Of a stretch of 64,000 nt of DNA, positions 9,152 through 30,065 are shown in pieces (within the stretch, counting starts at the first letter, position 1; every line of letters begins with the position of its first letter). Origin of the DNA: Candidatus Borrarchaeum yapensis (lineage in GTDB: Archaea > Asgardarchaeota > Sifarchaeia > Borrarchaeales > Borrarchaeaceae). The stretch lies in contig JAEOSF010000002.1 in the NCBI GenBank assembly GCA_016840515.1, positions 47,918 to 111,917 of the forward strand, read 5' to 3'. Made by a program: the position numbers and the translations under genes. The notes below the pieces were generated by a model that saw nothing but the letters and a program-made list of their open reading frames with translations, had not been told where the DNA came from and searched no databases.

Positions 9152-9352
9152 TAGCTAAGCAAGAAAGCACCACTATTTTAGCATGGTGATGAATGGCGTT
9201 GTGTGTATATAGTGTGTTGGTGATGCTCTTTATGAGCACCTACGGGGCGTAGAGATGTTAAGCCTGCGGAGATAAGACCTCCGTAACCCGTCAAGGGGAT
9301 CGAGTCTGTCGTTGAAGCAGGAAGCCTCAAAGCTTTCGTACGAGGTAGCTCA
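9152..9352 (+). mobile_element. Non-autonomous IS200/IS605-family derivative (MITE-like; left end plus right end, no ORF), copy A
   Basis: Shares ~70 nt of left end (tagctaagcaagaaagcacca...tggtgatgaatggcgttg) and ~110 nt of right end (cctacggggcgtag...gaagcaggaagcctca...gaggtagctcac) with copies at 27782..27984 and 29497..30065. Subterminal hairpins rather than terminal inverted repeats. TTAC lies 5' of the left end. Confidence 0.6.
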
Positions 9353-10192
9353 CCATGTAGCTTCTTTGAATTTACGAAGAACCTTTTGAATAGGTTCGCC
9401 TAAGACTTCAATCTTTTGAAGGTCTGTTGTTCCAAAGCCATTTTGTACCGCATATTTAATGTGTTTTATCTTATCTGCATCGAATCCCATAATCGTGGAA
9501 GCGACAGTGTCTACGGATGCTAAATCTTTTCCTGCGATTATCATATTCATGCGTACGGGATCTCCAGCAGTGGGTCCAAGTCCCTCCATACCAACAATTC
9601 CATCAATTACCGCAAAATCGGGTTTGATGAGCGTATTAAGATCGACAATTGCTTTATGGACACCTACTCGGTGAGATTTATATTTTTCATTTTGATACAT
9701 ACAACCTTTAAGGTTTTTTAGGCTTAATGTAACAGTGCATGCGTCATGAGTTTTCATTACTGGGACGCTAATAAACTTATCACACTCTAAAGCAGATTTT
9801 GCAATTTTTACTTCTTCTTTAAAGGCTAATGCTCCTTTTATTGAAACTTTGACAGGCATATCAGCATTGAAATCAACAATATCGATACCTTGCCCCTTCA
9901 AAAGAAGTCTATATTTTGTCCTATAGAAGACCTCTTCTGTATCGTAACCAACAATCGGGCTTTCTCCAACGAAGGGTACGCCACCTGCACTCTTCACTAA
10001 ATCGATTAGTTTTATTACTACTCGTGGATTTGTCGTAGCACCCGTATTACTCTGTTTTGGTGCTGCAAGGTTTGGTTTGATTAAAACATGGTCACCCTTA
10101 TCGATTATACCCTCAAGACCTCCAGCAAGGTTTACTGCTCTTTCGACCATGTCTTCGATGTTTCCGTCTTTCAACACTGATACAACGTCCAA
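9350..10192 (-). CDS. DUF362 domain protein
   Basis: HVLIKPNLAAPKQSNTGATTNPRVV core. The stop codon overlaps the right terminus of element copy A. Confidence 0.55.
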   Translation of the reverse strand: MDVVSVLKDGNIEDMVERAVNLAGGLEGIIDKGDHVLIKPNLAAPKQSNTGATTNPRVVIKLIDLVKSAGGVPFVGESPIVGYDTEEVFYRTKYRLLLKGQGIDIVDFNADMPVKVSIKGALAFKEEVKIAKSALECDKFISVPVMKTHDACTVTLSLKNLKGCMYQNEKYKSHRVGVHKAIVDLNTLIKPDFAVIDGIVGMEGLGPTAGDPVRMNMIIAGKDLASVDTVASTIMGFDADKIKHIKYAVQNGFGTTDLQKIEVLGEPIQKVLRKFKEATW

Positions 10193-10537
10193 GAAAAGTC
10201 CTCCAACAAATTATATTTCAGTTTTTTAAAAAAGAATATGTTGAAGGCAACTGTAAAATTGACTAATTTAGTCTAATCGTTTGCTATTTATGAACTATAT
10301 GCATAAGTGCACAATGAAAAAGTTTAAATATGCATAATATTCTAGGTGAATAAAAATTGATAATAATAATATCTTATGGTAATAATTGACATCTATAAGG
10401 AGGTCCGAAAGCGTGGATGAACAGTGGTGGTGGTGGAAAAACGGAAAGTGACTCACTTAGAAAATAAAAAATCTAACTTAAGGCTTTTTTGCTATTGAAA
10501 TCGTTGTCTCTATAATCTTCTAATAGGAAAATTTAGA

Positions 10538-11020
10538 TTAAGATACTACTATTTGTGAATTTAATCTTAATAATAAGTTTCTAAGTTTTTGTTGTGCTTT
10601 TCCAATCTTTTCCATTTTTATGATTTCAACTGGGACGTCAATTAAAGTAGATATTCCACGAATTGCTTCAAGATAATCCCTGCCCATCATAACGAAAATT
10701 TTTCTGTAAGTATGTGCAGTTACATGTCGGCTGAGTTTTTTCAAGACGTCATCTCTAAGTTCATGTGCTTTTTTCTTTGTCATGCGTTCCTCATAATAAG
10801 AAATCTCGTCTGTTGCTCTTAAAAGACCATATTTTGCTGAGATTATGAGTACATCAACATCGTGTCCTAATCCTTCTCTAAATGCTTTTCGTAAAGTCAG
10901 AAAAATTTTGCCATCGTATGCTCCAAATGCTGGCAACCTTGCATCGTCATTATTTTTCAATAGACTATTCTTGGTTTTTGAGCAAGAAATAATCAACAGA
11001 TGTTGCCCAGATAATGCCAC
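10538..11020 (-). CDS. Hypothetical protein with N-terminal LLIISCSKTK motif
   Basis: 160 aa. Family not recognised. Divergent from the ParB-like gene. Confidence 0.3.
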   Translation of the reverse strand: MALSGQHLLIISCSKTKNSLLKNNDDARLPAFGAYDGKIFLTLRKAFREGLGHDVDVLIISAKYGLLRATDEISYYEERMTKKKAHELRDDVLKKLSRHVTAHTYRKIFVMMGRDYLEAIRGISTLIDVPVEIIKMEKIGKAQQKLRNLLLRLNSQIVVS

Positions 11021-11494
11021 AAAAATACGCCCCCTGTTCAGATGCCGATATATATCACGGTTTTCTGTATTATTTAATTTTGTCGCAATTATTTTCTAAA
11101 TATAGAATTATATCGGACTTATAAAAAGAGTTCGTCAAAATGTCGGGGTTTTTTTCAAATAAAAGTATCACTTATTTCTAATTTCCTAGACGATAGGATA
11201 CCTAGTAAGCGCTTTTACCTGATATGTTTACGCTAATTGAAAACATAATAAACAATTATAGTAAGTTAAATTACCAAAAGTCACGAATTTAGATTCTATC
11301 TGTCCGCAAAAACGAATTTGAAAAAATTAATTGTAACATCGGGATATATACAGAATGAACATCGTGAAAAATACGATTAACATACATTTGATTATAATGG
11401 CTAACAGGTTCATTATGAAAAGCAGATTTAAGGAAATAAGTGAAAATAAAGTAAAGTTTCTCATTCAAATCTTATGTAGTTTTTATAGCACAAT

Positions 11495-12388
11495 TTGCTA
11501 ACATTAACTAAAGTCTATTTGGGGAAAAACATGAGTTCTTCACAGATTCGCTATGCTGTTGAATCTGACATCAGATTAGAAAAACTTGATTACCTTCAGC
11601 CTCATGAAAAAACGGCTTTCAAAGCAGTTGATCAATTATCGCAAGAAATAGAAAAGGATGGTTTTCAGAAAGACCCTATTATAATAGAAAAGAATAGTAT
11701 GGTTGTTTTAGATGGAATGCATCGCCTTGCGGCCCTGAAAAAACTTTCGTGTAAATCTGCTCTCTGCTATTTTGTTCTGTATGAAGATGTCAAAATTGAT
11801 CGATGGTGTAGGTTGTTTATTTCTAATCAGTCTATTTCTTTAATCGAATTGATTGAAAGTATGCAGAGATTAGATAAATTCATCATTAGGTACATGAACG
11901 ATCCTCAGAAAGCCGAAAGATTTGTAAACGAAAATAAAGCTACTGGGGCATTAATCACAAAGGAAAAATCCATTCTTATTAACAGTAAGGAAGAGATCAA
12001 GGATCGTGTAGAAATTTTTAATCATCTTATTCTTATCGAGGTACTTTTCAAATTCCATTTTAATATTGACGTTAGATATAGCGCAAAAATAGAGAGCGAA
12101 AACAATGATGTTGTAGGAGTGCTCGTGCCACCTATTGTGAATAAAAAAGACGTAGTAATGGCAGCAAAAAGCGGTGTTTTGTTCCCTTTAAAAAGCACAC
12201 GACACATACCTCGGATTCGTCCATTGTCTATTAATTTACCGATTTCATTTTTGCAAGATGAAGACATACAAGAGAAAAATAGAGAATTAAAGGCCATTCT
12301 CCATCAAAAGAAAATTCAGTTATTTTCGGGAGGAATGGAGATCAACGGAAGGGCATACGAAGAAGCAGTCCTACTATATAAGCAATGA
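11495..12388 (+). CDS. ParB/Srx-fold nuclease-like domain protein
   Basis: VVLDGMHRLAAL matches the ParB N-terminal domain DGxHR signature. The real start is possibly the internal MSSSQIRY. Confidence 0.45.
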   Translation: MLTLTKVYLGKNMSSSQIRYAVESDIRLEKLDYLQPHEKTAFKAVDQLSQEIEKDGFQKDPIIIEKNSMVVLDGMHRLAALKKLSCKSALCYFVLYEDVKIDRWCRLFISNQSISLIELIESMQRLDKFIIRYMNDPQKAERFVNENKATGALITKEKSILINSKEEIKDRVEIFNHLILIEVLFKFHFNIDVRYSAKIESENNDVVGVLVPPIVNKKDVVMAAKSGVLFPLKSTRHIPRIRPLSINLPISFLQDEDIQEKNRELKAILHQKKIQLFSGGMEINGRAYEEAVLLYKQ

Positions 12389-12443
12389 GATAAGTAGTAC
12401 TTTTATATCATCACCTAGTTATACCCTTGGAGAGTAACCTGTC

Positions 12444-13181
12444 TTGTCAATAGAATTAGCTTCAAGTGGTATCAAAGAATTAGATAAACTCATGGGTGGA
12501 GGGGTGCCAAGAGGCACGCAAATCTTACTTGAGGTTGAAACAGGTACCAGTCCATTGCTATTTGTAGAAAAATGGTTGCATGAAGGATTACGCCAGCAAG
12601 ATGTCTGCTTCTTTTATTCTTATGATTACTCTGTTGACGAAATTCTTCGGAAATATAAGGAATTTGGGATTGTTCCAGAGGAGTTTCTAAAAAAAGGGAA
12701 AATTGTAGACTTTTGGACAAAAGGAGGAGAATATGTACGGGATTTTTCAAAACATATAATCACAATCGGTGAGCCCAATAATGCAAATCGCATCATGGAC
12801 GTAATGCATGGAATTTGGGTGTGGTATCGAGAGCAGTATCAAGGAAAAGAGTCAAAGAAAGCGCTTGTAAGAAGCGCAACCTATTCCCTTTCAACAATTG
12901 TGATGACTTTTGGATTTGAAAGAACTTACAAACTAGCAAAAGAAATAAGCCAAGTCTCAAAAACCGAAAATGCAATGACTTTGGATGTTATTGGAATCGG
13001 AATGCACAACTCAATGGAATTAAAGACTTTTGAGTTCCTCTATGATGCTGTTGTTCGATTAGAAACACAGGAAATAAATGGAGAACTGGCAAGATATATC
13101 CGTGTTTTTAAATCACCAATTCTTGACTATGTAACTAAAAAGACCCCCTACAGTTTTGAAAAGAATGATTTAGTGTTCTAA
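12444..13181 (+). CDS. KaiC/RadA-like RecA-superfamily protein with degenerate Walker A (predicted inactive)
   Basis: GIKELDKLMGGGVPRGTQILLEVETGTSP aligns with KaiC-like GIxxLDxxLGGGxPxGSxxLIxGxPGTGKT, but the P-loop GKT is replaced by TSP. Confidence 0.45.
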   Translation: MSIELASSGIKELDKLMGGGVPRGTQILLEVETGTSPLLFVEKWLHEGLRQQDVCFFYSYDYSVDEILRKYKEFGIVPEEFLKKGKIVDFWTKGGEYVRDFSKHIITIGEPNNANRIMDVMHGIWVWYREQYQGKESKKALVRSATYSLSTIVMTFGFERTYKLAKEISQVSKTENAMTLDVIGIGMHNSMELKTFEFLYDAVVRLETQEINGELARYIRVFKSPILDYVTKKTPYSFEKNDLVF

Positions 13182-13379
13182 TCACCTAAAAACGTGAAAT
13201 AGTCTACAATATTGAGAGGTTTTTCTTATCATTTAGATTTAAAGAATTAAATACATCAAATTCCATTCTACTATTGAGAGAGATTCTTTTTTTTACCAAA
13301 AAGATTATCATTGAAAATAGAATTTAAAAATAAAAACCAATACACAGTCCAAATGATGTTTGAGCAATGGATTCGTTAG

Positions 13380-14954
13380 GTGGCTTTAATGAGATTTGAG
13401 GCGGATGTGTTCTTTGAATTTAGTAAAAAACTGCCTGTTGATGCAGAAGAATCATTAAAAGATTTCTTCGATAAAGCAAATAAAGATTTCTTGAAGAAAG
13501 GTACTCCAGAAGGGAAAGAAAACGAAGGAACAACAATACAAGAATATCAGATAAAGCCAGAAGGAGTTTTGTTAAGTGTAAACAGTGGCAGATACGTTAG
13601 AGCGCATACAGGCATTATGCGACTTAATAAAGAATTGTCTACATTTTTAGGAAAGAAATACCAGTTAGGTGTAAGAAATATTGAGATTCAACGATTTGAA
13701 ATCACCATGGAACTGGAAGAAGCGCCATTAGAGCCAATGACTCTTCCATTTACTGATAAAATCGACTTTGAGGGTAATCAGGCTCATATTATTCTAAATC
13801 CAAAAGATATTGATGAAACAGCACTAAAAAAGAACTATATTGATAAATTGCTTAATCGAATGGAAGAAAAAATCAGAACACAGAGTATGAGAGGTAAAGC
13901 GGCATTTTCTGAAACTGTCAGACGCAGCAAAAAAAGACTAGACAAGTATAGAATTACGATGGACCCTACTGAAGAAGCGTTAGGAAGAGGATGGGTAAAA
14001 GAGTTCCCAGGTGCCGGCGTCTGGACGATTATGCCTCCACTTGCATCGCTTATGCGCGCTATTGAACAACTTGTGATCGATAAGATAATCAAACCTATGG
14101 GATTTGTCGAAACCATCTTTCCGCGATTGATCCCATTAGAAGTTGAAAGAAAAAAAGGTCATCTTGCGATTCCAAATGAACTATTTTGGGTATGTCCTCC
14201 GACAAGTAGGAATCCTAAAGACTTTGAAGAATATGTAGACTATGTTGAAATCACAGGTACTACTAATCCTGAAATGCTACAAAAAATGCTCAGACCACCT
14301 ATGTTTGGTCTCTCTTATGCCCAGTGTGAGCCTTTCTATGAAATCTTTCAAAAGGAAATAGTAGACGTAGATGACCTTGAAAATAATCCCATACTGTTCT
14401 TTGATAGAAATGGTCCGACATGGAGGTGGGAAGGAGGAGGATTAAAAGGTTTAGAACGTCTAAACGAGTTTCATCGAATAGAATTCACGTACATGTCTAC
14501 ACCAAAGAAAACCATTGAAATAAGAGACGAAATTCTAGAACGGTCGATTGAATTAATTGATGAAATCTTTGATTTAGAGTACCGGATTGATAAGACCACA
14601 GCAGTTTATCTTGAGCATGCAGGCGCTGCAGAAAAAGAAGAAACAGAGGAATTTGTGAAGACATATGACCTAACAGCAATCCTACCTTTTGAAACGACTA
14701 GCAGACCAGAAGCAGAACTAGAAATATCGTCCTATCATGTTCACACTGACTTCTACGCAGGAAGATTCAATTTTAAAGATAAAGCAGGAAAAGATGTATG
14801 GACAGGTTGCGTAGGCATAGGTCCCTCACGATGGGCATATGTCTTCGTTATAAGGCATGGTTTCGATTACGAGAATTGGCCAAATGAAATTAAAAAATAT
14901 ATTGGCGATGAACTTCCAAAAACTCCACAGCTTGTTACATGGCCAAAAAAATGA
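13380..14954 (+). CDS. Class II aminoacyl-tRNA synthetase-like protein, possibly methanogen-type seryl-tRNA synthetase
   Basis: 524 aa. The C-terminal half carries class II motif-2-like FHRIEF and motif-3-like GCVGIGPSRWAYVFV. There is no C-terminal anticodon-binding domain. Size matches the 500-527 aa atypical SerRS. Confidence 0.4.
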   Translation: MALMRFEADVFFEFSKKLPVDAEESLKDFFDKANKDFLKKGTPEGKENEGTTIQEYQIKPEGVLLSVNSGRYVRAHTGIMRLNKELSTFLGKKYQLGVRNIEIQRFEITMELEEAPLEPMTLPFTDKIDFEGNQAHIILNPKDIDETALKKNYIDKLLNRMEEKIRTQSMRGKAAFSETVRRSKKRLDKYRITMDPTEEALGRGWVKEFPGAGVWTIMPPLASLMRAIEQLVIDKIIKPMGFVETIFPRLIPLEVERKKGHLAIPNELFWVCPPTSRNPKDFEEYVDYVEITGTTNPEMLQKMLRPPMFGLSYAQCEPFYEIFQKEIVDVDDLENNPILFFDRNGPTWRWEGGGLKGLERLNEFHRIEFTYMSTPKKTIEIRDEILERSIELIDEIFDLEYRIDKTTAVYLEHAGAAEKEETEEFVKTYDLTAILPFETTSRPEAELEISSYHVHTDFYAGRFNFKDKAGKDVWTGCVGIGPSRWAYVFVIRHGFDYENWPNEIKKYIGDELPKTPQLVTWPKK

Positions 14955-15451
14955 GTATTATGATTCCAATAGATCACGGAAAAACAGGTACATATACACT
15001 GATTATGCAATTGAATCAAGCAATTGAAATCGATGTTGGAAAATTGGGAATATATAAATTCCCCAAAGGAAACTATACATATACCGGTTCTGCTCTCGGA
15101 AAAGGAGCGGTGGGTCTCAGAGGTCGATTGCTACGCCACATTTCTAAAATCAAAACCCTGCACTGGCATATTGATTACTTTCTTAATGCAAAGGAATCTC
15201 AAATAAGCCATATAATACTTTGTGAATCAAATAAAAAATATGAATGCATGATAATCAAAGAACTCTTATCATTAGGTGGAAAAACAATTGTAAGAGGATT
15301 TGGTGCATCTGACTGTAAATCTGGATGCAAAAGTCACCTTCTTTTCTTTGAAGATAATGAAAGAAGAGTTCGTAGAATTGTAAAAAAAGCATATGAGGCA
15401 ATAATCTATAGCAATAATTTTAAAGAGTATTCTCTAGAAGGGATCTTATGA
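14939..15451 (+). CDS. DUF123 (GIY-YIG-like) family protein
   Basis: GNYTYTGSALG...RLLRH...LHWHIDY matches the conserved DUF123 pattern. Confidence 0.5.
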   Translation: MAKKMSIMIPIDHGKTGTYTLIMQLNQAIEIDVGKLGIYKFPKGNYTYTGSALGKGAVGLRGRLLRHISKIKTLHWHIDYFLNAKESQISHIILCESNKKYECMIIKELLSLGGKTIVRGFGASDCKSGCKSHLLFFEDNERRVRRIVKKAYEAIIYSNNFKEYSLEGIL

Positions 15452-15840
15452 AAAATCAATTTAACGACACAATCGATAAAGGCAAATTCAAAGTCGACCT
15501 ACACGCTATTACTTCAGGTGATGATTTAACAGTTATTATTGGCGGTGGGGAAGAACCACATATTGGTTCTGTTGTCATAGCTTGCCCTAATAAGAGTAAG
15601 AACGTCAACTATACAATCTGGACGGATGAAGGGCACAAAGATAACGTTATTGCCGAGGATGTTGCAACGGAATTAATAAAGAATTTTGATTTTAACAAAA
15701 ACGTTGTCGTAATTGCAGGATTACATATAGATCACGCGACAAATGAGGATATTAATCGACTTGTCAAAAACTCAAACAGTCTTGTCGACAATTTGCTTAA
15801 GAGTGACTTTTTCAAAGCTTTTATTGCTGAGAATAAATGA
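15448..15840 (+). CDS. LpdD-like small protein (prenylated-flavin chaperone family)
   Basis: TVIIGGGEEPHIGSVVIA resembles the LpdD core. Weak call. Confidence 0.3.
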   Translation: MKNQFNDTIDKGKFKVDLHAITSGDDLTVIIGGGEEPHIGSVVIACPNKSKNVNYTIWTDEGHKDNVIAEDVATELIKNFDFNKNVVVIAGLHIDHATNEDINRLVKNSNSLVDNLLKSDFFKAFIAENK

Positions 15841-16167
15841 TATGAATGAATAATTATTTTCGTTGTACATTTCTCTTTCAAAGAGAGATACACCGTCATA
15901 GTAGATAAAGAGAAATTTTAGGTTCAAAGCTGGACATTTTCTCAAGAAATCTAAAAAATTAACCTTTGTAGAAAGATTAAATAATGAATTGATCGTTATC
16001 CGTGTCAGTGTAAAAAACTTTAAAAGTTCAAAAAATCCTGTGAAAAACGATAATAACTCATTTAGAGGACTAACATTATAGATAAAGACAAATTAGGTGA
16101 ATAGGCCTTTTCTATAAGGTCTAGACTTTTTGAATGTTTCCAAATACGTTTTAAGACCTATCGATAG

Positions 16168-17625
16168 GTGAGAATTATGGAGAGAAAGTGGATCGATAAA
16201 GAGAAATTAAAAGAATTTTTAACAGCAACTGTAGGAAAAGAAAGTTTTTCTATGGATCCAGTAATGCTACTCGCTTTTGCTACAGATGCTAGCCGCTTTG
16301 AAAGCATGCCAGATGCGGTGGTGCGACCAAACTCAACAGAACAAATCTCTAGAATCGTTAGATACTGCTATGAAAATGAAATTCCAGTGATACCTGCTGG
16401 TGCTAGAACCGGTGCGTCAGGTGGAACAATTGCTGTTTACGGAGGAATCCTCCTTGATTTAACAGGCATGAATAACGTTTTAGCCCTTGATGTGGATAAC
16501 TTGCAGGTTTGTGTAGAGCCTGGTATAGTTAATGACAAACTCAACGAGTTTTTAAAACCACATGGATTCCTAGTACCGGGGCCAGCGAGTTCCTACGCTG
16601 CCACACTAGGCGGAATGGTTGGAAATGACTCTAGCGGAAAGAAAGCAGTTAGTTATGGAACGACCGATGCTTATGTTTTAAAAATGGAAGTTGTGCTTCC
16701 AGATGGAAGAGTAACGACCTTAGGATCTAATGCATTAAAAACAGCATCTGGAATGAATCTCGTAGGACTCTTCACAGGAAGTGAAGGTGTACTAGGTGTT
16801 TATACCAAGATTTGGTTGAGACTTATTCCACTGCCAGAGGCAGAAGGCATTGCAATGGCACTATTTGACGAATTAACGAACGCAGGTAGAGCTGTCATTA
16901 ATACTTTTAAAGCAGGAATAATCCCAGGTTGCGTTGAAATATTAGATAAATCATCAATTTATGCAATCAACCAATACAAACCAGAAATGAATCTTCCAGA
17001 TGTTGAAGCAATGCTTCTCTATGAGGTGGAAGGCTCATCATTCGAAATAGAACCAAAAATCAACAGAATAGCAGAGATCTGTAAGGAAAGCGGCGCAATC
17101 GAGGTAAAAAAAGCAACAGAAAAAGCGGAAATAGATCGCTTATGGGAAGCACGATCACTTGTCGGTGCGGCGTCAGTGCGTGTTCGAAAAGGCTACGCAC
17201 GCGTGTACGCTGGTGAAGATATTAGTGTGCCAATTTCTAATATACCAGAGATGTTAACTTTCTTACGGGAACTCAGTATAAAATATGACTTTCCGATCGT
17301 TACTTTTGGACATATTGGCGACGGTAACTTGCACCCAGCCATAACAATTCGAAAAGAAGTAGCCGAAGACTGGCCAAAATTAGAGGCACTCATAGAAGAA
17401 ATCAATCTGAAGGCTCTAGAATTGGGGGGAACAGTCACTGGTGAACATGGAATAGGTATTGCAAGGGCTCGATACATGAAGCTAGAGCACGGCGAGGTCG
17501 CGCTTGACTTGATGAAATTAATTAAACGGGCAATCGACCCTAAGAATATTATGAATCCTGGTAAAATGGCATTAGACGAAGATCCAGAAGTTATATTGAG
17601 TAAAATCCCAGATAGAACTATTTAA
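16168..17625 (+). CDS. glcD: FAD-linked oxidase, glycolate oxidase GlcD / D-lactate dehydrogenase family
   Basis: N-terminal FAD-binding PCMH domain (PAGARTGASGG) plus a C-terminal FAD-oxidase domain. Confidence 0.7.
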   Translation: MRIMERKWIDKEKLKEFLTATVGKESFSMDPVMLLAFATDASRFESMPDAVVRPNSTEQISRIVRYCYENEIPVIPAGARTGASGGTIAVYGGILLDLTGMNNVLALDVDNLQVCVEPGIVNDKLNEFLKPHGFLVPGPASSYAATLGGMVGNDSSGKKAVSYGTTDAYVLKMEVVLPDGRVTTLGSNALKTASGMNLVGLFTGSEGVLGVYTKIWLRLIPLPEAEGIAMALFDELTNAGRAVINTFKAGIIPGCVEILDKSSIYAINQYKPEMNLPDVEAMLLYEVEGSSFEIEPKINRIAEICKESGAIEVKKATEKAEIDRLWEARSLVGAASVRVRKGYARVYAGEDISVPISNIPEMLTFLRELSIKYDFPIVTFGHIGDGNLHPAITIRKEVAEDWPKLEALIEEINLKALELGGTVTGEHGIGIARARYMKLEHGEVALDLMKLIKRAIDPKNIMNPGKMALDEDPEVILSKIPDRTI

Positions 17626-17643
17626 AGGCATGAGGTGGAATAA

Positions 17644-18807: not shown

Positions 18808-18888
18808 GTATTTTCTAAAATTCTATTTTCTTTTTCTTTTCTATAAGGTTTTTTGATTTAAGACACTTTTAATAAATAATTGTATAGA

Positions 18889-22387: not shown

Positions 22388-22574
22388 TTTTTTAACACCA
22401 TTTCTCTTCTCTGGATCTATATTGAGAGAATGAATTATTTAAATAACATAAGACTATATTAGTGAAGGATTAAGAAATTTTAAACTTAAGTTTATCTGCA
22501 TTCCATTAGTTGTATTAATAGTTTTTTCACATTGACTCGTTATCAAACAAATTCAAATTAACTAAGCATTCAGA

Positions 22575-23729
22575 ATGGAGGAAAAACAATTGTCTGGAGA
22601 AAAAGAAACTGTTAAACGTCGAAAAAAACTTGAGAAGGTATGGAGTGACGCTTATAATGACTCAAAAAAGACTATACCTCAACGAAGTGAACGAAGGACG
22701 AAGGCAATTCTTTATGGAGACGTTCCTACTTTCATGGAATTGCCGCATGCTAAGAAGAAAGAAGATCTCAAGGGAATCGATGTTGCTTTTGTGGGGCTTC
22801 CATGGGAGGGGATAAAGCTTCTAGATCCTTGGACTACATTACCTGATACCGCAGCACCTGCACCTCCTGATTCAATTTACTATCGAACTGGTGCAGATAA
22901 GGCGCCGGAAGCTATTCGCAAATACTCAATATTCTACTCAATCAATCACAATTGGGGCTATTTCCCAGAATTGGACAAAGATTTCATTATTTTTAATCAT
23001 ATCAAAGCGGTAGACTATGGTGATGTTGAAGTAGATGTCAGAAATCCTGAAATGTCAATAGAAAACTCGATTCGCAAAATTTCAGAGATTTGCGAAGCAG
23101 GTGCAATTCCTTTAGTATCAGGCGGTGACCATACCATTCCTTATTCTTGTATCCGTGGTCTTATGAACAATACTGATGGAAATATTGGTATGATTTGTTT
23201 TGATTCTCATTTTGACCTTTATTTCGAAGAAGAAATCTCAGCTGCGTCTCAATGGGGACCACTTTTTAAGTTTTCTCAAGTCAATCCAGAGAATTTCTGC
23301 TCTATTGGTATTCGGGGTTTGCGTAACCAACTTCACGAGCGCTATGTAGCTGAAAAATTGGGGGTACAATACTTTACTATGGATGATATATGGCAAGAGG
23401 GGATACAAAAAATCATTAAGAAAGCCCTTAAGGTCGTGGAAAATACAGATGCACTCTATGTTTCACTTGATATCGATGTTGTGGACCCTGCATTCTGTCC
23501 CGCTCAAAAATATCCTGAACCAGGTGGTTTAACTTCCAGGGAAATCATATCCGCACTTCGACAGATCGGCAAGCATAAATTGATAAATGGATTTGACATT
23601 TGTTGTCTAGGGCCACAATACGATACGCAGACAGGGCTATCTGCTCAATTATGCGCACGCCTCTTTATGGAGGTGATGGCGACCATAGCTTGGCAAAAGG
23701 CAAAACACAATATTAGCGAAAGAGATTAA
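22575..23729 (+). CDS. speB: Ureohydrolase, agmatinase/arginase family
   Basis: GGDHTI, DSHFD and SLDIDVVDPAF motifs of the binuclear Mn ureohydrolases. Carries an ~100 aa N-terminal extension. Confidence 0.6.
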   Translation: MEEKQLSGEKETVKRRKKLEKVWSDAYNDSKKTIPQRSERRTKAILYGDVPTFMELPHAKKKEDLKGIDVAFVGLPWEGIKLLDPWTTLPDTAAPAPPDSIYYRTGADKAPEAIRKYSIFYSINHNWGYFPELDKDFIIFNHIKAVDYGDVEVDVRNPEMSIENSIRKISEICEAGAIPLVSGGDHTIPYSCIRGLMNNTDGNIGMICFDSHFDLYFEEEISAASQWGPLFKFSQVNPENFCSIGIRGLRNQLHERYVAEKLGVQYFTMDDIWQEGIQKIIKKALKVVENTDALYVSLDIDVVDPAFCPAQKYPEPGGLTSREIISALRQIGKHKLINGFDICCLGPQYDTQTGLSAQLCARLFMEVMATIAWQKAKHNISERD

Positions 23730-23773
23730 TAAAATAACAGAGACGATAGCAAAAAAAAGAAAGAGTGTTAGGT

Positions 23774-24040
23774 TTATTCCTTCAGTTCGTTTATTGTTAT
23801 TGCTCCTTGCGGGCAGACCTCAGGACATAATCCGCAACTCCAGCATAAAACATCATGTGCTACTACGTCCCAATCATAGGTTATTTTCCCTTTTTCTCGC
23901 TGCTTTGGATAGGTGGCGAAAACCGTTGCAGGGCACTTTTTCAAACAATCATTGCATTCAAAGGGACCTACACATTTTGAATTATCTACCTGAACTTCCA
24001 TTGTGCGCTCAGGCAATGTAAGTGTTCTTAAATGTTCCAT
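23774..24040 (-). CDS. 2x[4Fe-4S] ferredoxin
   Basis: Two CxxCxxCxxxCP motifs. Confidence 0.65.
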   Translation of the reverse strand: MEHLRTLTLPERTMEVQVDNSKCVGPFECNDCLKKCPATVFATYPKQREKGKITYDWDVVAHDVLCWSCGLCPEVCPQGAITINELKE

Positions 24041-24041
24041 G

Positions 24042-24392
24042 TTACCACATCTCCTTCACAGCTGGCACTTCAGCGCGTGGCACCAGTTTTATGGCATCAT
24101 TCTCGCAAGTAACGCGGCAGATGCCGCATCCAAAGCATTTCTTCATATCTATAATGGCTTTTCCCCAATAAGGTGAATAGGTTATAGCATTGAATTGACA
24201 TCGCTTGATGCAATTACCGCACCCATCACATTCATCGAAATCTTGCACCGCCACATACTCTGCTTTCCTATAGAAAAAGTTGTACCAGTCACCCATAATT
24301 TTCCTAATGCGTATAGCACCACAAGATCTGCAGTCATCAATACACATACCAAGTACCGCAGGAGTCTCCAACCCCCTCCAAAAAGATAGCAC
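24042..24392 (-). CDS. Ferredoxin-domain protein, C-terminal part of an interrupted frame
   Basis: CDGCGNCIKRCQFNAI and CFGCGICRVTCENDAI. In the same frame as 24477..24884, separated by a single TAG. The intervening 28 codons have no stop. Confidence 0.45.
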   Translation of the reverse strand: MLSFWRGLETPAVLGMCIDDCRSCGAIRIRKIMGDWYNFFYRKAEYVAVQDFDECDGCGNCIKRCQFNAITYSPYWGKAIIDMKKCFGCGICRVTCENDAIKLVPRAEVPAVKEMW

Positions 24393-24476
24393 ATATCCTT
24401 TCTTATGAACCTTCTCTACATATTCTATGGCTTCCTCTTTGGAAATAAAATCAATACCACCCCTGGTATAGTCAGG

Positions 24477-24884
24477 CTAATCCTTAGCGTATTCTAGACC
24501 AATGTGACCAACGCCTATACATGTCTTATCCTCAAAGTCAGCACCAAAAACCCGTCGACAGATACACTGTACTTTAGTTAGCGGTCCTGACAATTTGAAG
24601 ATCTCTATCGCGTCCTCCAGTGGAACAACCTGCCCTACATGAGGTGCATAGTCAACCCAAGCCTTTTTTGTGCCTTCAACAGCTTGTGTAAAGATTTCAT
24701 CATTCGGAATTTTCAGCATATCAGCAAATTGAAGCCCTCCCATGCCGGCAAAAGTATCTATATTTTGCATGTATTTGTTGTATTCTTCAACTGCCGCCTC
24801 GTCATGAATCCATTCCTTCTCGTAATTCTTTTGATTCAAATACCACTTCTTTCCGTCACCATGTTTTGTACACCAATCGCACAA
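24477..24884 (-). CDS. Cys-containing N-terminal part of the interrupted frame (MCDWCTKHGDGKKWY...)
   Basis: Ends at TAG 24477..24479, and the frame continues into 24042..24392. Either read-through or a pseudogene. Confidence 0.4.
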   Translation of the reverse strand: MCDWCTKHGDGKKWYLNQKNYEKEWIHDEAAVEEYNKYMQNIDTFAGMGGLQFADMLKIPNDEIFTQAVEGTKKAWVDYAPHVGQVVPLEDAIEIFKLSGPLTKVQCICRRVFGADFEDKTCIGVGHIGLEYAKD

Positions 24885-25264
24885 GACTATCTCCCCCTAC
24901 TTACAATTTGTAATTTAATGCATTAAAAATGTTTTTATATACTATTCATACTTTTATACTTTTCATTTGTGTGCCAATTTTCTGATCAGACGAATATGAA
25001 CTAAAATTCGTTAAACTACGGATTTAAATAAGAATAAATACACATTTTTTAATTTCTAAAAAAATCCAAGATCAAGAGATCTTTAAATCATATATCCATT
25101 AAGCAAAAGAAAAGTTCGAAATGTGAAACCAATTGATATGGAATCTTCTCAGGAAATTAACGGAATTCCTAAGTTAGCAGATCAAGGTTGTAGGTTTTCT
25201 TTTCTGATATATTACCAATATGTAGAATTCTTTTTTATATAAGAACGAATTTTATAATCTAACT

Positions 25265-25696
25265 TTGAAAAATATGAAAGGAACGATAAGAATGATCGGA
25301 AAATTACCTGAAAATATATTAGAAGCCATTCTTGAAGCATTGCCGATTGAATTCTCAGTTGTTGATGAGAATAGTGATGTTTTGGCATGGAATAAACACG
25401 AAACACGAATTTTCAAGAGACCTAAAGGCGTTATTGGAAGAAATGTTCGTGACTGTCATCCAAAAAAGAGCCTTGAGAAGGTAGAAAGAATCATAAATGA
25501 AATGAAGGAAGGAACAAGAGATAAAGCCCGCTTCTGGATCGATCTTACGATTGACCCAGAAGGTGAGAAACAGAAAGTTATGATAGAGTATTACGCGTTA
25601 AGGGACGCTAGTGGAAAATACCTTGGTTGTCTCGAAGCATCACAAAATATAACAGAAATACAAAAGCTCAGTGGTGAGAAAAGATTACTTGATTAA
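25265..25696 (+). CDS. PAS-domain protein (small sensor)
   Basis: 143 aa. PAS-like core EFSVVDENSDVLAWN...GRNVRDCHP. Confidence 0.4.
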   Translation: MKNMKGTIRMIGKLPENILEAILEALPIEFSVVDENSDVLAWNKHETRIFKRPKGVIGRNVRDCHPKKSLEKVERIINEMKEGTRDKARFWIDLTIDPEGEKQKVMIEYYALRDASGKYLGCLEASQNITEIQKLSGEKRLLD

Positions 25697-26029
25697 GATG
25701 CAATTAATCTTATTATAGCATTTCTAATCAGAGTTAGTCCAGAAGTTACCAAAGAGCAATATTTATATAGCGCTTTTCTTACACACACCTCAATTAATTC
25801 TCGGAGAGGTTGGGATGCCCTACCAAGGACTTTAGCTGAAGACAGAAATTCCATAGTAAACTGTGGAATGAGAGACTTCTTTTTGTATGTACCAAAGAAA
25901 CAAGTAAATAATCATTCGTTCATCATCCCATACCATAGTGTTTTCAATCTAATGCAAAAGGATCCAGTAGTGCATCTATTTAAAGAAAGCAAAAAGGAGC
26001 TAAAAGAACAAGAATAGGAGGAAGAACAT

Positions 26030-26350
26030 GTGAATACAACTCTGAATAATGATACTTCAGAAGAAATAGACAAAGTTGTGATTACCGTAATCGGTGGCGA
26101 CCGAACTGGTATCGTTGCTGGCGTATCTCAGGTCCTAGCGGAATGTGAGGTTAATATTGAGGATATGAGCAGCACAATCCTACACTATAAGAATAGAAAT
26201 CTTTTCAGCATGATCTTGCTAGGCGATATGTCCAATGCTACTGTGCCGCTAAAAGCACTAAAAGAAAGACTTCGAACAAAGGGCGAAGAATTAGGAGTTC
26301 ATATTTTTACTCTTCACGAAGAGGTTTTCAATTTTATGAATCGCGTTTAG
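26030..26350 (+). CDS. ACT-domain protein (UPF0237)
   Basis: VITVIGGDRTGIVAGVSQVLAE ACT motif. Classic partner of UPF0210. Confidence 0.6.
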   Translation: MNTTLNNDTSEEIDKVVITVIGGDRTGIVAGVSQVLAECEVNIEDMSSTILHYKNRNLFSMILLGDMSNATVPLKALKERLRTKGEELGVHIFTLHEEVFNFMNRV

Positions 26351-26353
26351 GAA

Positions 26354-27751
26354 GTGTATAAAGATATGCCATTACTTTTATCTCCAAGTGAAATTTTAGA
26401 TACCGTTCGTATGTTTTGGCTTGAAAACTTGAACATACGTGCAACCACTTTAGCAATGAACATCCAAAAATATGCTCGCGATGATCCTGATCTTACAATA
26501 TCGCTTTTGGAAACACATTTGCCCCCTTTTATAAAACGCTTTATTGCTGAAATTACTCAAATTGAAGAACGGTTTGGTGTACCTATCGTGAACAAAAGAT
26601 TAGCTGTTACACCTATCGCACAGTTATTAGGACCTATGGTTGAAGATTTAGAAATAAATGAGGGTATCAATGTTGCCTTTAAGATAGCATCCTCATTAGA
26701 TAGAATTGCAAAGGAATCTGGTGTTGATTATGTAGGAGGCTATTCTACTTTTGTTCACAGAGGTTTCACGAAGGCAGATAATATACTTATCGAGTCTCTG
26801 CCAGAAGTGATGAGTAAGACTGATACGGTTTGTGGTTTTGTTAACGTTGCGACAACTCATGCCGGCATCAATTTTGATGCAATTGCTAAAATGGGTGAAA
26901 TTATTCTCAAAGTCGCTCACGAAACACCTAACGGAATAGGCTGTGCAAAATTTACAGTCTTTGCAAACGCTATGGAAGACACACCTTTTATGCCTGGTGC
27001 TTTTGCAAGTCCAGGTGGTCCTGATGCTACAGTGGTCATCGGAATTAGCGGACCTGGTGTGATCAAAGCAGCAATACAAGAAATTGGCGAAAATGCAGAT
27101 ATTGGGAAACTGGCTGACGAGATCAAAGCGGCTACCTTTAAAGTCACCCGAGCAGGAGAATTGATTGGAAGACAAATCGCAAAGGCATTAGGTATTGAAT
27201 TTGGTGCAGTAGACATCAGCTTGGCTCCTGATCCAAATGGAGGCTCGGTTGCCGAGATTATACAGGCAATAGGGCTAGAAGAATGCGGAGGACACGGAAC
27301 TATAGCGGCGCTAGCTATCCTTGCTGACGCCTTGAAGAAAGGCGGCGCGATGGCCAGTAGTTATGTAGGAGGACTCTCTGGTGTCTTTATTCCAATTATG
27401 GAAGATGCTGGAATGTGCGAGGCAGTAAAGAGAGGTGCGATCGACATTACAACACTTCACGCCATGAGTAGTGTATGTGCATTGGGGATCGATATGGTGC
27501 CGATACCAGGAGACACAAGCAAAGAAACGATCTCAGCCATTATCGCGGATCAGATAGCTATTGCCATTGCAAATGATAAGCCAGCTGGAGTGCGAATTAT
27601 TCCAGTACCAAAAAGTTATGGTGGCGAAATGATAGAGTTTGGTGGTTTGATGGGAAAAGCTCCAGTTCTCAATACAAAACCTTATCGATCAGATACCTTT
27701 ATTAAAAGAAAAGGACGTACACCCGCCCCATTTCACAGTTTACGCGGATAG
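26354..27751 (+). CDS. UPF0210 (DUF711/PFL-like) family protein
   Basis: 465 aa with Gly-rich conserved blocks. Conserved gene pair with the upstream ACT protein. Confidence 0.55.
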   Translation: MYKDMPLLLSPSEILDTVRMFWLENLNIRATTLAMNIQKYARDDPDLTISLLETHLPPFIKRFIAEITQIEERFGVPIVNKRLAVTPIAQLLGPMVEDLEINEGINVAFKIASSLDRIAKESGVDYVGGYSTFVHRGFTKADNILIESLPEVMSKTDTVCGFVNVATTHAGINFDAIAKMGEIILKVAHETPNGIGCAKFTVFANAMEDTPFMPGAFASPGGPDATVVIGISGPGVIKAAIQEIGENADIGKLADEIKAATFKVTRAGELIGRQIAKALGIEFGAVDISLAPDPNGGSVAEIIQAIGLEECGGHGTIAALAILADALKKGGAMASSYVGGLSGVFIPIMEDAGMCEAVKRGAIDITTLHAMSSVCALGIDMVPIPGDTSKETISAIIADQIAIAIANDKPAGVRIIPVPKSYGGEMIEFGGLMGKAPVLNTKPYRSDTFIKRKGRTPAPFHSLRG

Positions 27752-27781
27752 CAGGATATTATCCCTTTATTTTCATCTATA

Positions 27782-27984
27782 TGAGCTACCTCACGCTAAA
27801 GCAATGAGGCTTCCTGCTTCAACCATCAGACTCGATCCCCTTGCGGGTTACGGAGGTCTCGATGTTCACAGGCGTGAATTTCCTACGCCCCATAGGTACT
27901 CAGTTACTCTCATATCAATAAAGTATATAAACCCAACGCCATTCATCACCACGCTCAAGCGTTGGTGCTTTCTTGCTTAGTTAC
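27782..27984 (-). mobile_element. IS200/IS605-derived MITE-like element, copy B (inverted relative to A and C)
   Basis: The reverse complement matches copy A along its whole length (left-end hairpin, cctatggggcgtag, gaagcaggaagcctca...gaggtagctca). TTAC adjoins the left end. Confidence 0.6.
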
Positions 27985-28031
27985 CTGTAATCGACAAAAG
28001 GGATAAATACTCAGCAAGGCTGTTTTTCATA

Positions 28032-29447
28032 TTGGAGAATGTCATGAAACTATGTTATGTGATTATTGATGGATTAGCTATTAACTGCTGGGAAACCGCC
28101 GTTAGCTCTCTTAATGGAGGATTTATAAACTATATTAATGATAATGCGTTTAAAGTCCCCACACTTGTAGATATTTTTTCAGTTTCAAGACCAGGTCACG
28201 TTGCCTTTAGTTATAGGTTGTCGCCGTTTGAAACGAATTTAGTAGGCAACAGATTTGTCGACATCGAACAAATGAAGGTGATTAACCCTCCTTTAGATAT
28301 TTTTAAGAAATATAGATCAGTTTTTGATGATTTAAAGGACGCTGGCCACACTTTGCTCGGATTCGGAAATAAGGGATGCGGAATTTCAGAAGGAGGGATT
28401 TCAAAAGAAACGGTAGATCCTGGCGATGAGGGAGGTCAACGTACCCTTCAGCTATACATGCGAATGACTAAGGAAAACGGGTCTTTGTCTACATCTTATT
28501 CACCCTTCCATCAGATTGCAATTCCTTCTGGTATCTATCACAATGGAAAGAGAGAGCCGTTTGACGAACTAAATGAAAGACGTAAGAAAATCAGGGAGCG
28601 TATCTTCGGAGGCGAACACGTAGGAGTAGATAAATTCGGTGAGATGGATGATGTGCTCACGGCAAAGGTCGCAGAATTGATTAATGTATATAATCCAAGC
28701 GTTATCACAGGGACGATCGGTGGACCAGACAAGGCCATCCATACTGATGGAACAAAATCATTAACGGCTGCAGAAGTGTTAAGAAATGCAATTGAAATGA
28801 TACGTAAGTTATTGTTCGCGATGGGAGACGATACTTTGTTTATCTTGACGACTGATCATGGTAACTCCGATACACCAGAAATTTTCCCAATTACTGCAAC
28901 TATCCAACAACTTGCCAGCATGAATGGATTCTCTGAAAACGATTATGCGATCGCAACTGATGGGAGAAGAGGGTTTAGAATATGGTTTACCGAAGACCTA
29001 ATACATTCACGAAGTAAACAGATTCATGAGCTTGTTGATCGGCTGAAAAGGATGCCGGCTAATCGCTGGGTTCATTTCACGCCGGAATATGAAGAAATAG
29101 AAAACATCTTTGGCAAGGACGTTGGTTATAGTCGAGATAAATTTGGACATGTAATCGGAACAGCTAATGAAGGATATGGTTATGACATCATCTATAGAAA
29201 AGCAAATCATGGGGGAATCACGCCAGGGTGCACCCAAATATATACATTCTTCGCATATTTTGACGGGCACAAACTCACAAAGCCTCACTGGATCAAGGAA
29301 AGGTTCCAAAAGTACTTGCAAAATAAGAAGTTGAATATATGGGATATTAGTGCAGTGGCTGTTGAAACTATAGGTGCAGAATTATTTGATTACGAAACAC
29401 CAACTATCAGTGTTGCTGACTTTTTTGAAAGCAAGCTATCCGCTTGA
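28032..29447 (+). CDS. Alkaline-phosphatase-superfamily metalloenzyme (phosphoglycerate-mutase/phosphodiesterase-like)
   Basis: N-terminal VIIDGLA and the LFILTTDHGNSD metal-site motifs of the AlkP core. Flanked by element copies B and C. Confidence 0.45.
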   Translation: MENVMKLCYVIIDGLAINCWETAVSSLNGGFINYINDNAFKVPTLVDIFSVSRPGHVAFSYRLSPFETNLVGNRFVDIEQMKVINPPLDIFKKYRSVFDDLKDAGHTLLGFGNKGCGISEGGISKETVDPGDEGGQRTLQLYMRMTKENGSLSTSYSPFHQIAIPSGIYHNGKREPFDELNERRKKIRERIFGGEHVGVDKFGEMDDVLTAKVAELINVYNPSVITGTIGGPDKAIHTDGTKSLTAAEVLRNAIEMIRKLLFAMGDDTLFILTTDHGNSDTPEIFPITATIQQLASMNGFSENDYAIATDGRRGFRIWFTEDLIHSRSKQIHELVDRLKRMPANRWVHFTPEYEEIENIFGKDVGYSRDKFGHVIGTANEGYGYDIIYRKANHGGITPGCTQIYTFFAYFDGHKLTKPHWIKERFQKYLQNKKLNIWDISAVAVETIGAELFDYETPTISVADFFESKLSA

Positions 29448-29496
29448 ACTACCCCCAGCATGAATTCAATTTATGAGTTAAAAGTTCATTTACAAG

Positions 29497-30065
29497 TAGC
29501 TAAGCAAGAAAGCACCACAGCTTCAGCGTGGTGATGAATTGCGGTAGTGTGTGTGTTCACTTTCATCATGGGGTCTCCTTAATACTTAAATAGTGGTGTG
29601 CCTCTCATACAGTGATGACTATCACGAGGACGGCAGGCAGGGATCGATACAAAACTATGGCTCTTGGTAGCATCACAGCTCATACCATGTTATCCGCTGC
29701 ATTCGGAGGGATCATACGCACACTTGCAGATAAGGTGCATACTCCGATTAAAGTCGAGAGGTGGTTTGCTTCCACCAAAACCTGTTCGCGTTGCGGGAAT
29801 ATCCGGAAAATAGGATTGGATGAACGAGTCTATATCTGTCCGGTCTGTGGTTTGGTGATGGACAGAGATCATAATTCAAGTATTAACTTAGAACACGAAG
29901 GGTTAACACAACAAGTGGTACCTACGGGACGTAGGGATGTTAAGCCTGTGGAGACTGAATCCTCTACTGTGATATCGCTGGAATACCTAAACCGTATTCC
30001 TTATGTGACAGCAAGTTCGGTCATCGAAGCAGGAAGCCTCACTGCTTGAGCGTGAGGTAGTTCAC
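29497..30065 (+). mobile_element. IS200/IS605-family element remnant with truncated tnpB (copy C)
   Basis: Same left and right ends as copies A and B. The internal ORF is a TnpB C-terminal fragment only. Confidence 0.65.
29612..30049 (+). pseudogene. tnpB: TnpB (IS605 OrfB) C-terminal fragment: RuvC-III plus zinc finger
   Basis: WFASTKTCSRCG...YICPVCGLVMDRDHNSSINL is the canonical TnpB C-terminus. The N-terminal ~250 aa are missing. Confidence 0.65.

Follow-up and report, generated by a model that had tools for sequence, protein, structure and literature searches.

Three related loci in a 64,000-nt stretch of Candidatus Borrarchaeum yapensis DNA (hereafter the window; GCA_016840515.1, contig JAEOSF010000002.1, positions 47,918-111,917, forward strand) are confirmed as genuine copies, here A, B and C, of a small non-autonomous, IS608-like transposon family of the IS200/IS605 type. 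Overall, they are best explained as members of this family resident in Borrarchaeum-like Asgard archaea, a reading given a probability of about 0.85. An earlier note on the window had described an IS200/IS605-derived family with subterminal hairpins and two ORF-less, MITE-like copies, and this core reading is supported by the comparative evidence below.

Borders, target sites and hairpin ends

Pairwise alignment of the three loci bore out their common termini, with a left end of ~66 nt and a right end of ~117 nt in common. The left-end 18-mer CTAAGCAAGAAAGCACCA occurs exactly three times in the window (0.06 expected) and the right-end 16-mer GAAGCAGGAAGCCTCA three times (0.4 expected), and nhmmer profiles of both ends found only copies A, B and C (E 4e-18 to 2e-33). 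The borders of all three were shifted slightly on the basis of a family alignment and an empty site for copy B (Table 1). TTAC had been named as the target, as in IS608, and does abut the left end of each copy; the 3 nt earlier placed between TTAC and the element proved, from the same alignment and empty site, to be element sequence. Nearly all family copies have the abutting TTAC, the exceptions being one TAAC and one TTGC.

Table 1. Coordinates of copies A, B and C and their features in the window
Feature	Position	Strand	Remarks
Copy A	9149..9353	+	205 nt, ORF-less, type-1 (PATE/MITE)
TTAC target/left cleavage site (TAM) of A	9145..9148	+	directly abuts element
Left subterminal hairpin of A (CACCA...TGGTG)	9168..9188	+	guide AAAG just before
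TATA-like octamer TGTATATA of A	9204..9211	+	25 nt upstream of first RNA helix
Omega-RNA-like scaffold of A	9237..9353	+	predicted guide, flank from 9354 (CATGTAGCTTCTTTGA...)
Right hairpin of A	9325-9345	+	inside scaffold; A terminates in TCAC
Copy B	27781..27986	-	206 nt, ORF-less, type-1
TTAC target of B (GTAA on plus strand)	27987..27990	-	empty-site comparison
Left hairpin of B (CACCAACGCTTGAGCGTGGTG)	27947..27967	-	guide AAAG
TATA box TTTATATA of B	27924..27931	-	25 nt upstream of scaffold
Omega-RNA-like scaffold of B	27781..27898	-	predicted guide, flank ATAGATGAAAATAAAG...
Right hairpin of B	27789-27809	-	inside scaffold; B terminates in TCAT
Copy C	29494..30065	+	572 nt, deletion derivative of ~1.7-kb tnpB-only element
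TTAC target of C	29490..29493	+	abuts left end
Left hairpin of C (CACCACAGCTTCAGCGTGGTG)	29513..29533	+	guide AAAG; best formed of the three copies, z -2.0
TnpB remnant ORF, 145 aa	29612..30049	+	zinc ribbon and RuvC-III; RuvC-I Asp and RuvC-II Glu missing
Long-form omega-RNA scaffold of C	29919..30065	+	predicted guide, flank TTTAGGACAGGAATCA...
Right hairpin of C	30037-30057	+	inside scaffold; C terminates in TCAC

The ends are asymmetric, carrying subterminal hairpins that are imperfect palindromes, with neither terminal inverted repeats nor target duplication. Structures of IS608 have provided a rule by which guide and cleavage sequences pair; under this rule the right guide of the family, GAAG, predicts TCAC, which is the end observed. 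At the left end the guide AAAG marks the hairpin foot 19 nt beyond TTAC, and the same spacing and guide have been reported for IS608 (PMC3201880). The two guides thus fit the IS608 guide/cleavage code for TTAC and TCAC. Left (CACCAC/GTGGTG) and right (CCTCAC/GTGAGG) stems are two compensating base pairs apart, and further compensating changes lie inside the stems across family copies. When individual sequences are folded as single-stranded DNA, the hairpins come out weak (z +1.0 to -2.0, not significant), those of copy A being degenerate and its right hairpin absent from the minimum-energy fold, and the structural case therefore rests on the comparative data. Loops had also been thought to co-vary between the two ends of a copy, which did not hold: over 66 copies, the mean distance was 3.83 within a copy and 3.88 +/- 0.07 when ends were shuffled within size classes.

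The family and its full-length, tnpB-bearing members

About 115 related copies were found in Asgard MAGs and sediment metagenomes. A census counted 89 elements with both ends, which fall into five size classes (48 nt, ~205, ~315, ~575 nt and 1.43-1.71 kb), all of them too small to hold tnpA. Some 29 copies of ~205 nt and ~34 of 310-340 nt have distinct flanks in several Asgard MAGs or metagenomes, and ORF-less copies exceed tnpB copies by ~6 to 1. The 48-nt copies were considered, and rejected, as REP/RAYT repeats or the att scar of a site-specific integrase; they are regarded as deletions joining left end to right end, because the outer sequences of both ends and the TTAC flank are kept. Two loci (L006, L070) are truncated solo left ends lacking a right end, and two more (L077, L117) are full-length copies interrupted by contig ends. 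Viral contigs gave no match to either element end.

The largest copies (1.43-1.71 kb) carry an intact tnpB of 427 aa and no tnpA; they supply, in related genomes (L008, L042, L043, L044 and others), the coding copies with the same ends that the earlier note called for. The L008 TnpB has domains PF01385 and PF07282, the RuvC D-E-D motifs GIDFG, QDENL and DRDFN and a CxxC..CxxC zinc ribbon, and it matches the ISDra2 TnpB structures 8BF8 and 8H1J (E 4e-18). Metagenomes of the same kind commonly contain intact TnpB genes that are 77-90% identical to this protein.

The remnant ORF of copy C matches Pfam PF07282 (Cas12f1-like TNB; E 2.4e-14) and shares 84% identity with residues 306-425 of the intact 427-aa TnpB; because the match has this span, only the zinc-finger and RuvC-III tail is retained, and Pfam and the TnpB alignment agree in this with the earlier description. 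Positions 7-261 of copy C match 7-258 of L042, and 194-572 match 1318-1696; the two matches overlap in a 68-nt direct repeat that is internal to the full-length element. Judged from this alignment, copy C is a full-length element minus ~1.1 kb, the deletion lying between two such 68-nt repeats. The L008/L042 sub-group has a ~400-nt leader in which the tnpB tail and scaffold start recur in degenerate form, and this leader repeat is what gives rise to C-type deletions. A 577-nt copy, 87% identical to C, is present at another site (L049/L066).

The right end as an omega-RNA-like scaffold

The final 117-147 nt of the elements share a multi-helix fold that is conserved among copies and shows compensating changes, some of them within coding sequence. 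In a helix test on the alignment, 94.9% of cells were paired, as against 32-43% with partners slid, and cells with double changes numbered 45 against 16 +/- 4.6 in shuffles, a count matched by 0/500 shuffles. RNAalifold recovered the scaffold helices independently. Run on just the short copies, it paired the 5' block globally with the right hairpin arm; this odd solution was set aside, since support from the joint alignment goes to the helices common with the long form. The right-end fold is as expected of an omega-RNA scaffold, and at this structural level the compensating changes support the earlier suggestion that one is encoded there. In Rfam searches the window had no match at gathering score except one tRNA, and nothing at E<=1 over 27700-30120. 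In the short form a GC mini-hairpin of 3-4 bp takes the place of the central stem-loop; this central stem is unlike that of every tnpB-linked scaffold seen, and compatibility of the short scaffold with an available TnpB is therefore an assumption.

A TATA-like octamer lies at element position 54-56 in 25/27 type-1 copies, and tnpB elements of 1433-1442 nt have it at position 56, with full-length L043 and L044 likewise supporting the geometry; its spacing to the scaffold is 24-26 nt in 25/25 type-1 copies having both landmarks. The direction in which the box would fire is judged solely from its position upstream of tnpB. Short copies A and B consist only of left end, tnpB TATA box, shortened scaffold and right end.

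Insertion history and the source of transposase

Copy B is precisely absent from contig L137, which is 98.8-99.3% identical to the window in the flanks. The empty site (...CTAT/GTAA..., the slash marking the junction) keeps TTAC once, with no extra bases and no scar, and near-identical strains thus differ in having or lacking copy B. Copy A has a different history: it occupies the junction between a DUF362 stop and a ferredoxin start, and an orthologous 316-nt copy stands at the same site in B. weybense, with flanks 87-93% identical. By this comparison copy A is an old, fixed insertion common to B. weybense.

The searches for tnpA used tblastn, with approximate IS608 and IS200 TnpA sequences and then the L125 TnpA as queries. 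None was found in the 64-kb window, among 20 loci of B. weybense or across ~0.98 Mb of related sequence, matches being confined to the L124-L129 relatives; a weak match in L084 was rejected as a methyltransferase-like ORF. An intact tnpB was likewise not found in the window. These absences would agree with a reading in which the window copies are inert fossils of a once-mobile family, the short copies idling in a genome that has neither TnpA nor a matching TnpB, as would the age and degenerate hairpins of copy A and the dead TnpB tail that is all copy C encodes. However, the scarless presence/absence of copy B between such similar flanks, the helices kept by compensating changes, the constant TATA spacing and the common occurrence of intact TnpB genes in the same kind of metagenome all count against it, and fossil status is considered unlikely.

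A relative with a 58%-identical TnpB is a tnpA-plus-tnpB element having a TTAC target and guide AAAG; its right hairpin, guide and TCAC are identical to those of the family, and its left-hairpin stem differs (CCCCAT/ATGGGG). The best match of its TnpA is IS608 TnpA (E 3e-41). The element is probably from another archaeal lineage. Among the top 120 homologues of this TnpA the names were of Methanosarcinales and Methanoperedens, with no Asgard names, and are uninformative on lineage because most entries carry none. The end architecture, together with this relative, suggests that TnpA is supplied to the family in trans.

That no Y1 tnpA adjoins any of the ~115 copies also raises the question of another mover, such as an IS607-type serine recombinase or an Asgard Cas1-like transposase, and PMC10691335 reports linkage of Asgard TnpB groups to homologues of Cas1. 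Such a mover is very improbable given the full IS608 code in the ends (TTAC, AAAG at 19 nt, GAAG to TCAC, two similar hairpins), an empty site with no duplication or scar, a nearest transposase-linked relative that carries Y1 tnpA, and the lack of any called recombinase or Cas1 gene next to those full-length copies that were examined. Little credence, too, is given to the short copies being host-domesticated small-RNA genes that guide a nuclease-dead or regulatory (TldR-like) TnpB relative: their promoter-plus-scaffold architecture, their excess over tnpB copies and the long retention of copy A at one site would suit it, but every copy keeps both transposon ends and the TTAC flank, the guide under the usual rule would be the flank of the copy itself, the observed TnpBs retain the D-E-D catalytic residues, and no link with host regulons was observed.

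Proposed mechanism and significance

For a non-autonomous IS608-like family, movement would be of the single-strand "peel and paste" kind, now or formerly. A Y1 TnpA encoded elsewhere would quite probably bind both hairpins and cleave 3' of TTAC and TCAC. With a joint likelihood put only somewhat above even, the TATA box would drive an omega-RNA from the short copies whose guide is 16-20 nt of the right flank, the TnpB of a full-length copy would cut the TTAC-flanked empty site in trans, and repair from the sister chromosome would restore the copy. It is a rather doubtful extension that the ORF-less copies might be selected, self-promoted guide-RNA genes, forming a dispersed guide library for Asgard TnpB nucleases; if true, the naturally shortened central stem would mark dispensable parts of the scaffold.

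The present analysis documents an IS608-type family of Asgard archaea that is active or was so recently, and its borders, target, cleavage code and natural empty site, now defined, are useful for annotating these MAGs. The 427-aa TnpB, predicted TTAC TAM and scaffolds of 147 and 117 nt make up a test set for RNA-guided nucleases from hosts that are the closest prokaryotic relatives of eukaryotes. The short copies illustrate a route from transposon to promoter-plus-guide-RNA unit via internal-repeat deletion. Current understanding of IS200/IS605 or OMEGA systems is unchanged by these findings.

Comparison with known systems

IS608 of Helicobacter pylori is the type element for single-strand transposition in the IS200/IS605 group. 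The Borrarchaeum family is like it in having TTAC directly 5' of the left end, AAAG at the left-hairpin foot at a distance of 19 nt from it, a right cleavage site that lies within the element and is predicted by the four nucleotides preceding the right hairpin, and no terminal inverted repeats or target duplication. It differs in that its copies were found without tnpA and in Asgard hosts, in its right site (TCAC, with guide GAAG, where IS608 has TCAA), and in the distance from the end of that site to the hairpin foot (8 nt, as against 10 nt).

The full-length copies are, like IS1341-type elements such as the non-autonomous ISGst of Geobacillus stearothermophilus, tnpB-only between IS605-type ends, with an omega-RNA scaffold overlapping the tnpB 3' end; the repeat-bearing ~400-nt leader of the L008/L042 sub-group sets them apart. 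The short copies are a known kind of element, PATEs with stand-alone omega-RNAs, in a new host lineage. PATEs and such RNAs have been described from Haloquadratum (PMC3119063) and Geobacillus (PMC10055086), and stand-alone omega-RNAs by Altae-Tran et al. as cited in PMC10691335. The likeness includes the lack of ORFs, the ends of tnpB elements, dispersal at many sites, and a scaffold-encoding sequence with TnpB needed in trans. The short form differs from them in keeping the tnpB TATA box 24-26 nt from the scaffold and in its GC mini-hairpin, features that were not found in the passages of the PATE and omega-RNA literature that were compared.

With respect to ISDra2 of Deinococcus radiodurans, the predicted TAM is TTAC as opposed to TTGAT, and the scaffold sequence is unrelated at an Rfam-detectable level. 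The L008 TnpB matches its TnpB in structure, and the expectations, as in ISDra2, are of a guide taken from flanking sequence 3' of the right end and of a TAM that is the transposon target itself.

Element ends and borders

The three loci A, B and C, described earlier as copies of one hairpin-ended element, are true repeats, alignable along a left end of ~66 nt and a right end of ~117 nt. A left-end 18-mer occurs exactly three times in the window (0.06 expected), as does a right-end 16-mer (0.4 expected), and profile searches with both ends found no further copies in the 64 kb. The earlier note had placed TTAC 3 nt upstream of the left end; this was not borne out by the family alignment, in which TTAC abuts the element, directly 5' of almost all copies (TAAC and TTGC, once each, are the exceptions on the left). 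The first 5-6 nt 3' of TTAC differ among sub-families but are inherited inside each, and are thus part of the element. The 3' terminus is TCAC, or rarely TCAT.

Corrected borders of the three copies (window coordinates)
Copy	Position	Strand
A	9149-9353	+
B	27781-27986	-
C	29494-30065	+

In all three copies the left hairpin, CACCA-N11-TGGTG, begins 19 nt 3' of TTAC and is preceded by AAAG; the right hairpin, CCTC-N13-GAGG, has GAAG on its 5' side and TAG(C/T)TCA(C/T) on its 3' side. Left and right stems differ at two positions per arm, with compensation in each case (A-T to C-G; C-G to T-A). IS608 is cleaved 3' of a TTAC placed 19 nt 5' of the left hairpin foot, where the guide AAAG lies, and its right cleavage site, TCAA, is 10 nt 3' of the right hairpin (PMC3201880). 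The window copies share TTAC, the 19-nt spacing and the AAAG guide, and differ from IS608 in having TCAC/TCAT as right terminus. The rule for pairing guide and cleavage tetranucleotides reportedly comes from the IS608 structures of Barabas et al. 2008; applied here by analogy, it predicts TCAC from a right guide GAAG, matching the terminus seen. We consider the family to be IS608-like and non-autonomous, with a probability of roughly 0.85.

Distribution and coding capacity of the family

When one genome of each species was scanned for the left-end 18-mer, 41 loci were found, ~20 of them in the Candidatus Borrarchaeum weybense MAG; the remaining true loci were in Borrarchaeota, Sifarchaeum and Hermodarchaeota MAGs. 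Where the 18-mer matched bacterial, Thorarchaeota or Bathyarchaeia records, it did so by chance. Proteins of the window also occur on GCA_029856345.1 contigs and in sediment metagenomes. The 90% clusters to which they belong are named Promethearchaeota and Candidatus Borrarchaeum sp., and the window is therefore assigned to a Borrarchaeum-like Asgard archaeon. A census combining the genome scan with a metagenome scan by left-hairpin pattern yielded 89 two-ended elements and 27 left ends that are truncated or cut by contig ends.

Size classes in the census
Length	Copies	Description
48 nt	11	left-end 5' arm fused to right-end 3' arm; solo copies L001, L003, L020, L025, L028, L029, L035 (B. weybense) and 4 metagenome loci
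~205 nt (type 1)	~29	A and B among them
310-340 nt (type 2)	~34	
572-577 nt	3	C, and a copy 87% identical at another site
1433-1714 nt	10	full length, tnpB only

No size class is roomy enough for tnpA; the full-length copies have one gene each, tnpB, which in four chromosomal contexts stands alone amid ordinary housekeeping genes. The TnpB of contig L008 has 427 aa, the motifs GIDFG, QDENL and DRDFN, a CxxC..CxxC zinc ribbon, domains PF01385 and PF07282, and a structure match to ISDra2 TnpB; its homologues number >2000, the named ones mostly Asgard. The ORF of copy C matches the zinc-ribbon domain PF07282 and shares 84% identity with residues 306-425 of an intact relative, so that it is a C-terminal tail only, as the earlier note had proposed. 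This ORF (29612-30049) is open in two C-type copies, C and the L049 element, that differ at 13% of nucleotides; such open frames may result from recent, separate deletions in different full-length elements and not from selection for a mini-protein.

By tblastn with IS608 and IS200 TnpA, and then with a relative, no tnpA was found in the window or in ~0.98 Mb of loci. On six contigs a 137-aa Y1_Tnp gene immediately precedes the gene of a TnpB homologue, P0111 (58% identical). Its element has a TTAC target, AAAG 5' of the left hairpin, an ATGAAT motif 3' of the hairpin as in the window family, a deviating left stem (CCCCAT/ATGGGG), and a right end identical to that of the window family (GAAG, CCTCAC..GTGAGG, TAGTTCAC). 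The best match of the linked TnpA is IS608 TnpA (2A6M, 2VHG; E ~3e-41), and this tnpA-bearing relative places the lineage in a true Y1-linked IS605 branch. Mobilisation of the Asgard copies in trans by a Y1 TnpA is judged quite likely.

Proposed right-end scaffold and promoter

The right end had been proposed as the site of an omega-RNA, and an alignment of the last 117-147 nt of 34 diverse copies is consistent with this. A six-helix structure is 94.9% paired, compared with 32-43% after sliding 3' partners by 1-3 columns, and cells changed on both sides number 45, whereas shuffles give 16.1 +/- 4.6 (45 attained by 0/500). Among the compensating changes, CC..GG gives way to GG..CC in the first hairpin, columns 35/107 go from G-C to C-G and columns 39/103 from A-U to G-C, and columns 51/94 show four pair types. 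Independently, RNAalifold recovered both the first and the terminal hairpin, as well as the long-range CCUGU/GCAGG helix and the one after it. The scaffold centre of the long form also encodes the C-terminus of TnpB, and folds into a 7-bp GGAAUAC/GUAUUCC hairpin; ORF-less copies have a 3-4-bp CCC/GGG mini-hairpin instead, with the enclosing helices retained. No Rfam family matched the scaffold. Judged from sequence, the right-end structure fits an omega-RNA scaffold.

Of 27 type-1 copies, 25 have at element position 54-56 an octamer at most one mismatch from TTTATATA (TGTATATA in A, TTTATATA in B). In the full-length elements of 1433-1442 nt the octamer is at position 56, ~70 nt before the tnpB ATG. 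From its end to the first scaffold helix there are 24-26 nt in all 25 type-1 copies that have it. An archaeal TATA box is normally ~25 nt upstream of the transcription start, and given this spacing the short copies look like the tnpB promoter fused directly to the scaffold; the direction of firing, and transcription itself, we infer. That short-copy guide RNAs would be expressed and used in trans is put at even odds or slightly better.

In full-length elements GGAGCAGCAAG stands just 5' of the tnpB start codon (L043 ~3955-3975; L044 ~3975-3990; L016 minus strand, element position ~143). It is akin to the right-end motif GAAGCAGGAAG, one side of the long-range scaffold helix, and may be a ribosome-binding region alone or a regulatory mimic.

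Origin of the short forms

Positions 7-261 of C match 7-258 of the full-length element of L042, and 194-572 of C match 1318-1696; the overlap, 68 nt long, occurs in the full-length element as two direct repeats, making C a deletion between internal repeats. Type-1 copies follow the 1433-1442-nt elements from the left end to ~24 nt past the TATA octamer, and then resume at the scaffold. In the 48-nt copies, none of which is in the window, the left-hairpin 5' arm is joined to the right-hairpin 3' arm via the shared loop GCTTnAGCG, and the GTTCAC tail typical of long forms is present in 7/7 of the listed B. weybense copies. By analogy with solo LTRs, these would be solo scars of left-end by right-end deletion between hairpin loops. 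Their layout is TTAC, left end to the 5' arm, shared loop, right 3' arm and TAGTTCAC, with two mismatches in the hybrid stem.

The ~1.7-kb full-length elements carry a ~400-nt leader (L008 5115-5530; L042 3602-4000) in which the tnpB tail (GGAGGGAT..AAGGTGCATACTCC) and the scaffold start (CTACGGCAGGCTGGAAATTGACGCCTGT) recur in degenerate form, and which is also found in type-2 (~315-nt) copies. It may be the remnant of an older tandem or nested element.

Mobility and age

Contig L137 (GCA_029856345.1), with flanks 98.8-99.3% identical to the window, lacks exactly 27781-27986. The empty site reads ...CTAT|GTAA..., that is, TTAC and the right flank with no base gained or lost, and B is present on three other contigs. 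The insertion of B is recent, and its scarless absence is the pattern expected of IS200/IS605 insertion or excision. The insertion of A is old: at the same DUF362 stop/ferredoxin start junction, B. weybense has a type-2 copy of 316 nt in the same orientation, with 87-93% homology from both flanks into both ends, and the hairpins of A are the most degenerate of the three.

At the A site (window 9145-9356; L146 1180-1510) the DUF362 stop formerly overlapped the ferredoxin start (empty site ...ACATGGTAATAG...). The last bases of A supply a new TGA stop for the DUF362 gene, and its first three, CAT, the ferredoxin ATG on the opposite strand; the B. weybense orthologue opens with CAC, giving a GTG start. 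Since other family copies begin with AAG, GAG, TAG or TGA, the end bases at the A site look selected to keep the host gene translatable. Contigs L143, L145 and L144, from other samples, match the window across the ferredoxin gene and ~125 nt of A from its left end, and then go on into the right half of another copy and different flanking DNA; these junctions are either recombination of dispersed copies rearranging the genome or assembly chimeras at the repeat.

Other features of the window

Contig L133 lacks 62 nt of the DUF711 gene (window 26479-26540), and L135 ends exactly there; the segment has the appearance of ordinary coding DNA, and either a strain deletion or a break in the assembly accounts for the difference. 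The sole Rfam match in the window is a tRNA (50908-51007, minus strand), whose full 71-position model is spread over 100 nt, which suggests that this archaeal tRNA gene contains an intron. Downstream of an arginase-family gene, an 88-aa ferredoxin-like gene (window 23730-24045; L133 11200-11466) is called on only some near-identical contigs with equal spacing; the discrepancy may stem from gene calling or from an in-frame stop variant.

Comparison with known elements

Palindrome-associated transposable elements (PATEs) are described in PMC10055086 as ORF-less, with IS605 ends, and often encoding omega-RNAs that need TnpB in trans; the same paper gives tnpB-only elements as the majority form of the family, and PMC10691335 describes mobilised stand-alone omega-RNAs that work in trans. 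Copies A and B resemble PATEs in being ORF-less, with the ends of tnpB elements and a guide-RNA-like scaffold. The window family therefore belongs to a kind of element already known, in a lineage for which the papers we found give no prior characterisation of it. To the first reading are added the fixed promoter-scaffold spacing, the naturally shortened scaffold and the 48-nt left-end/right-end scars.
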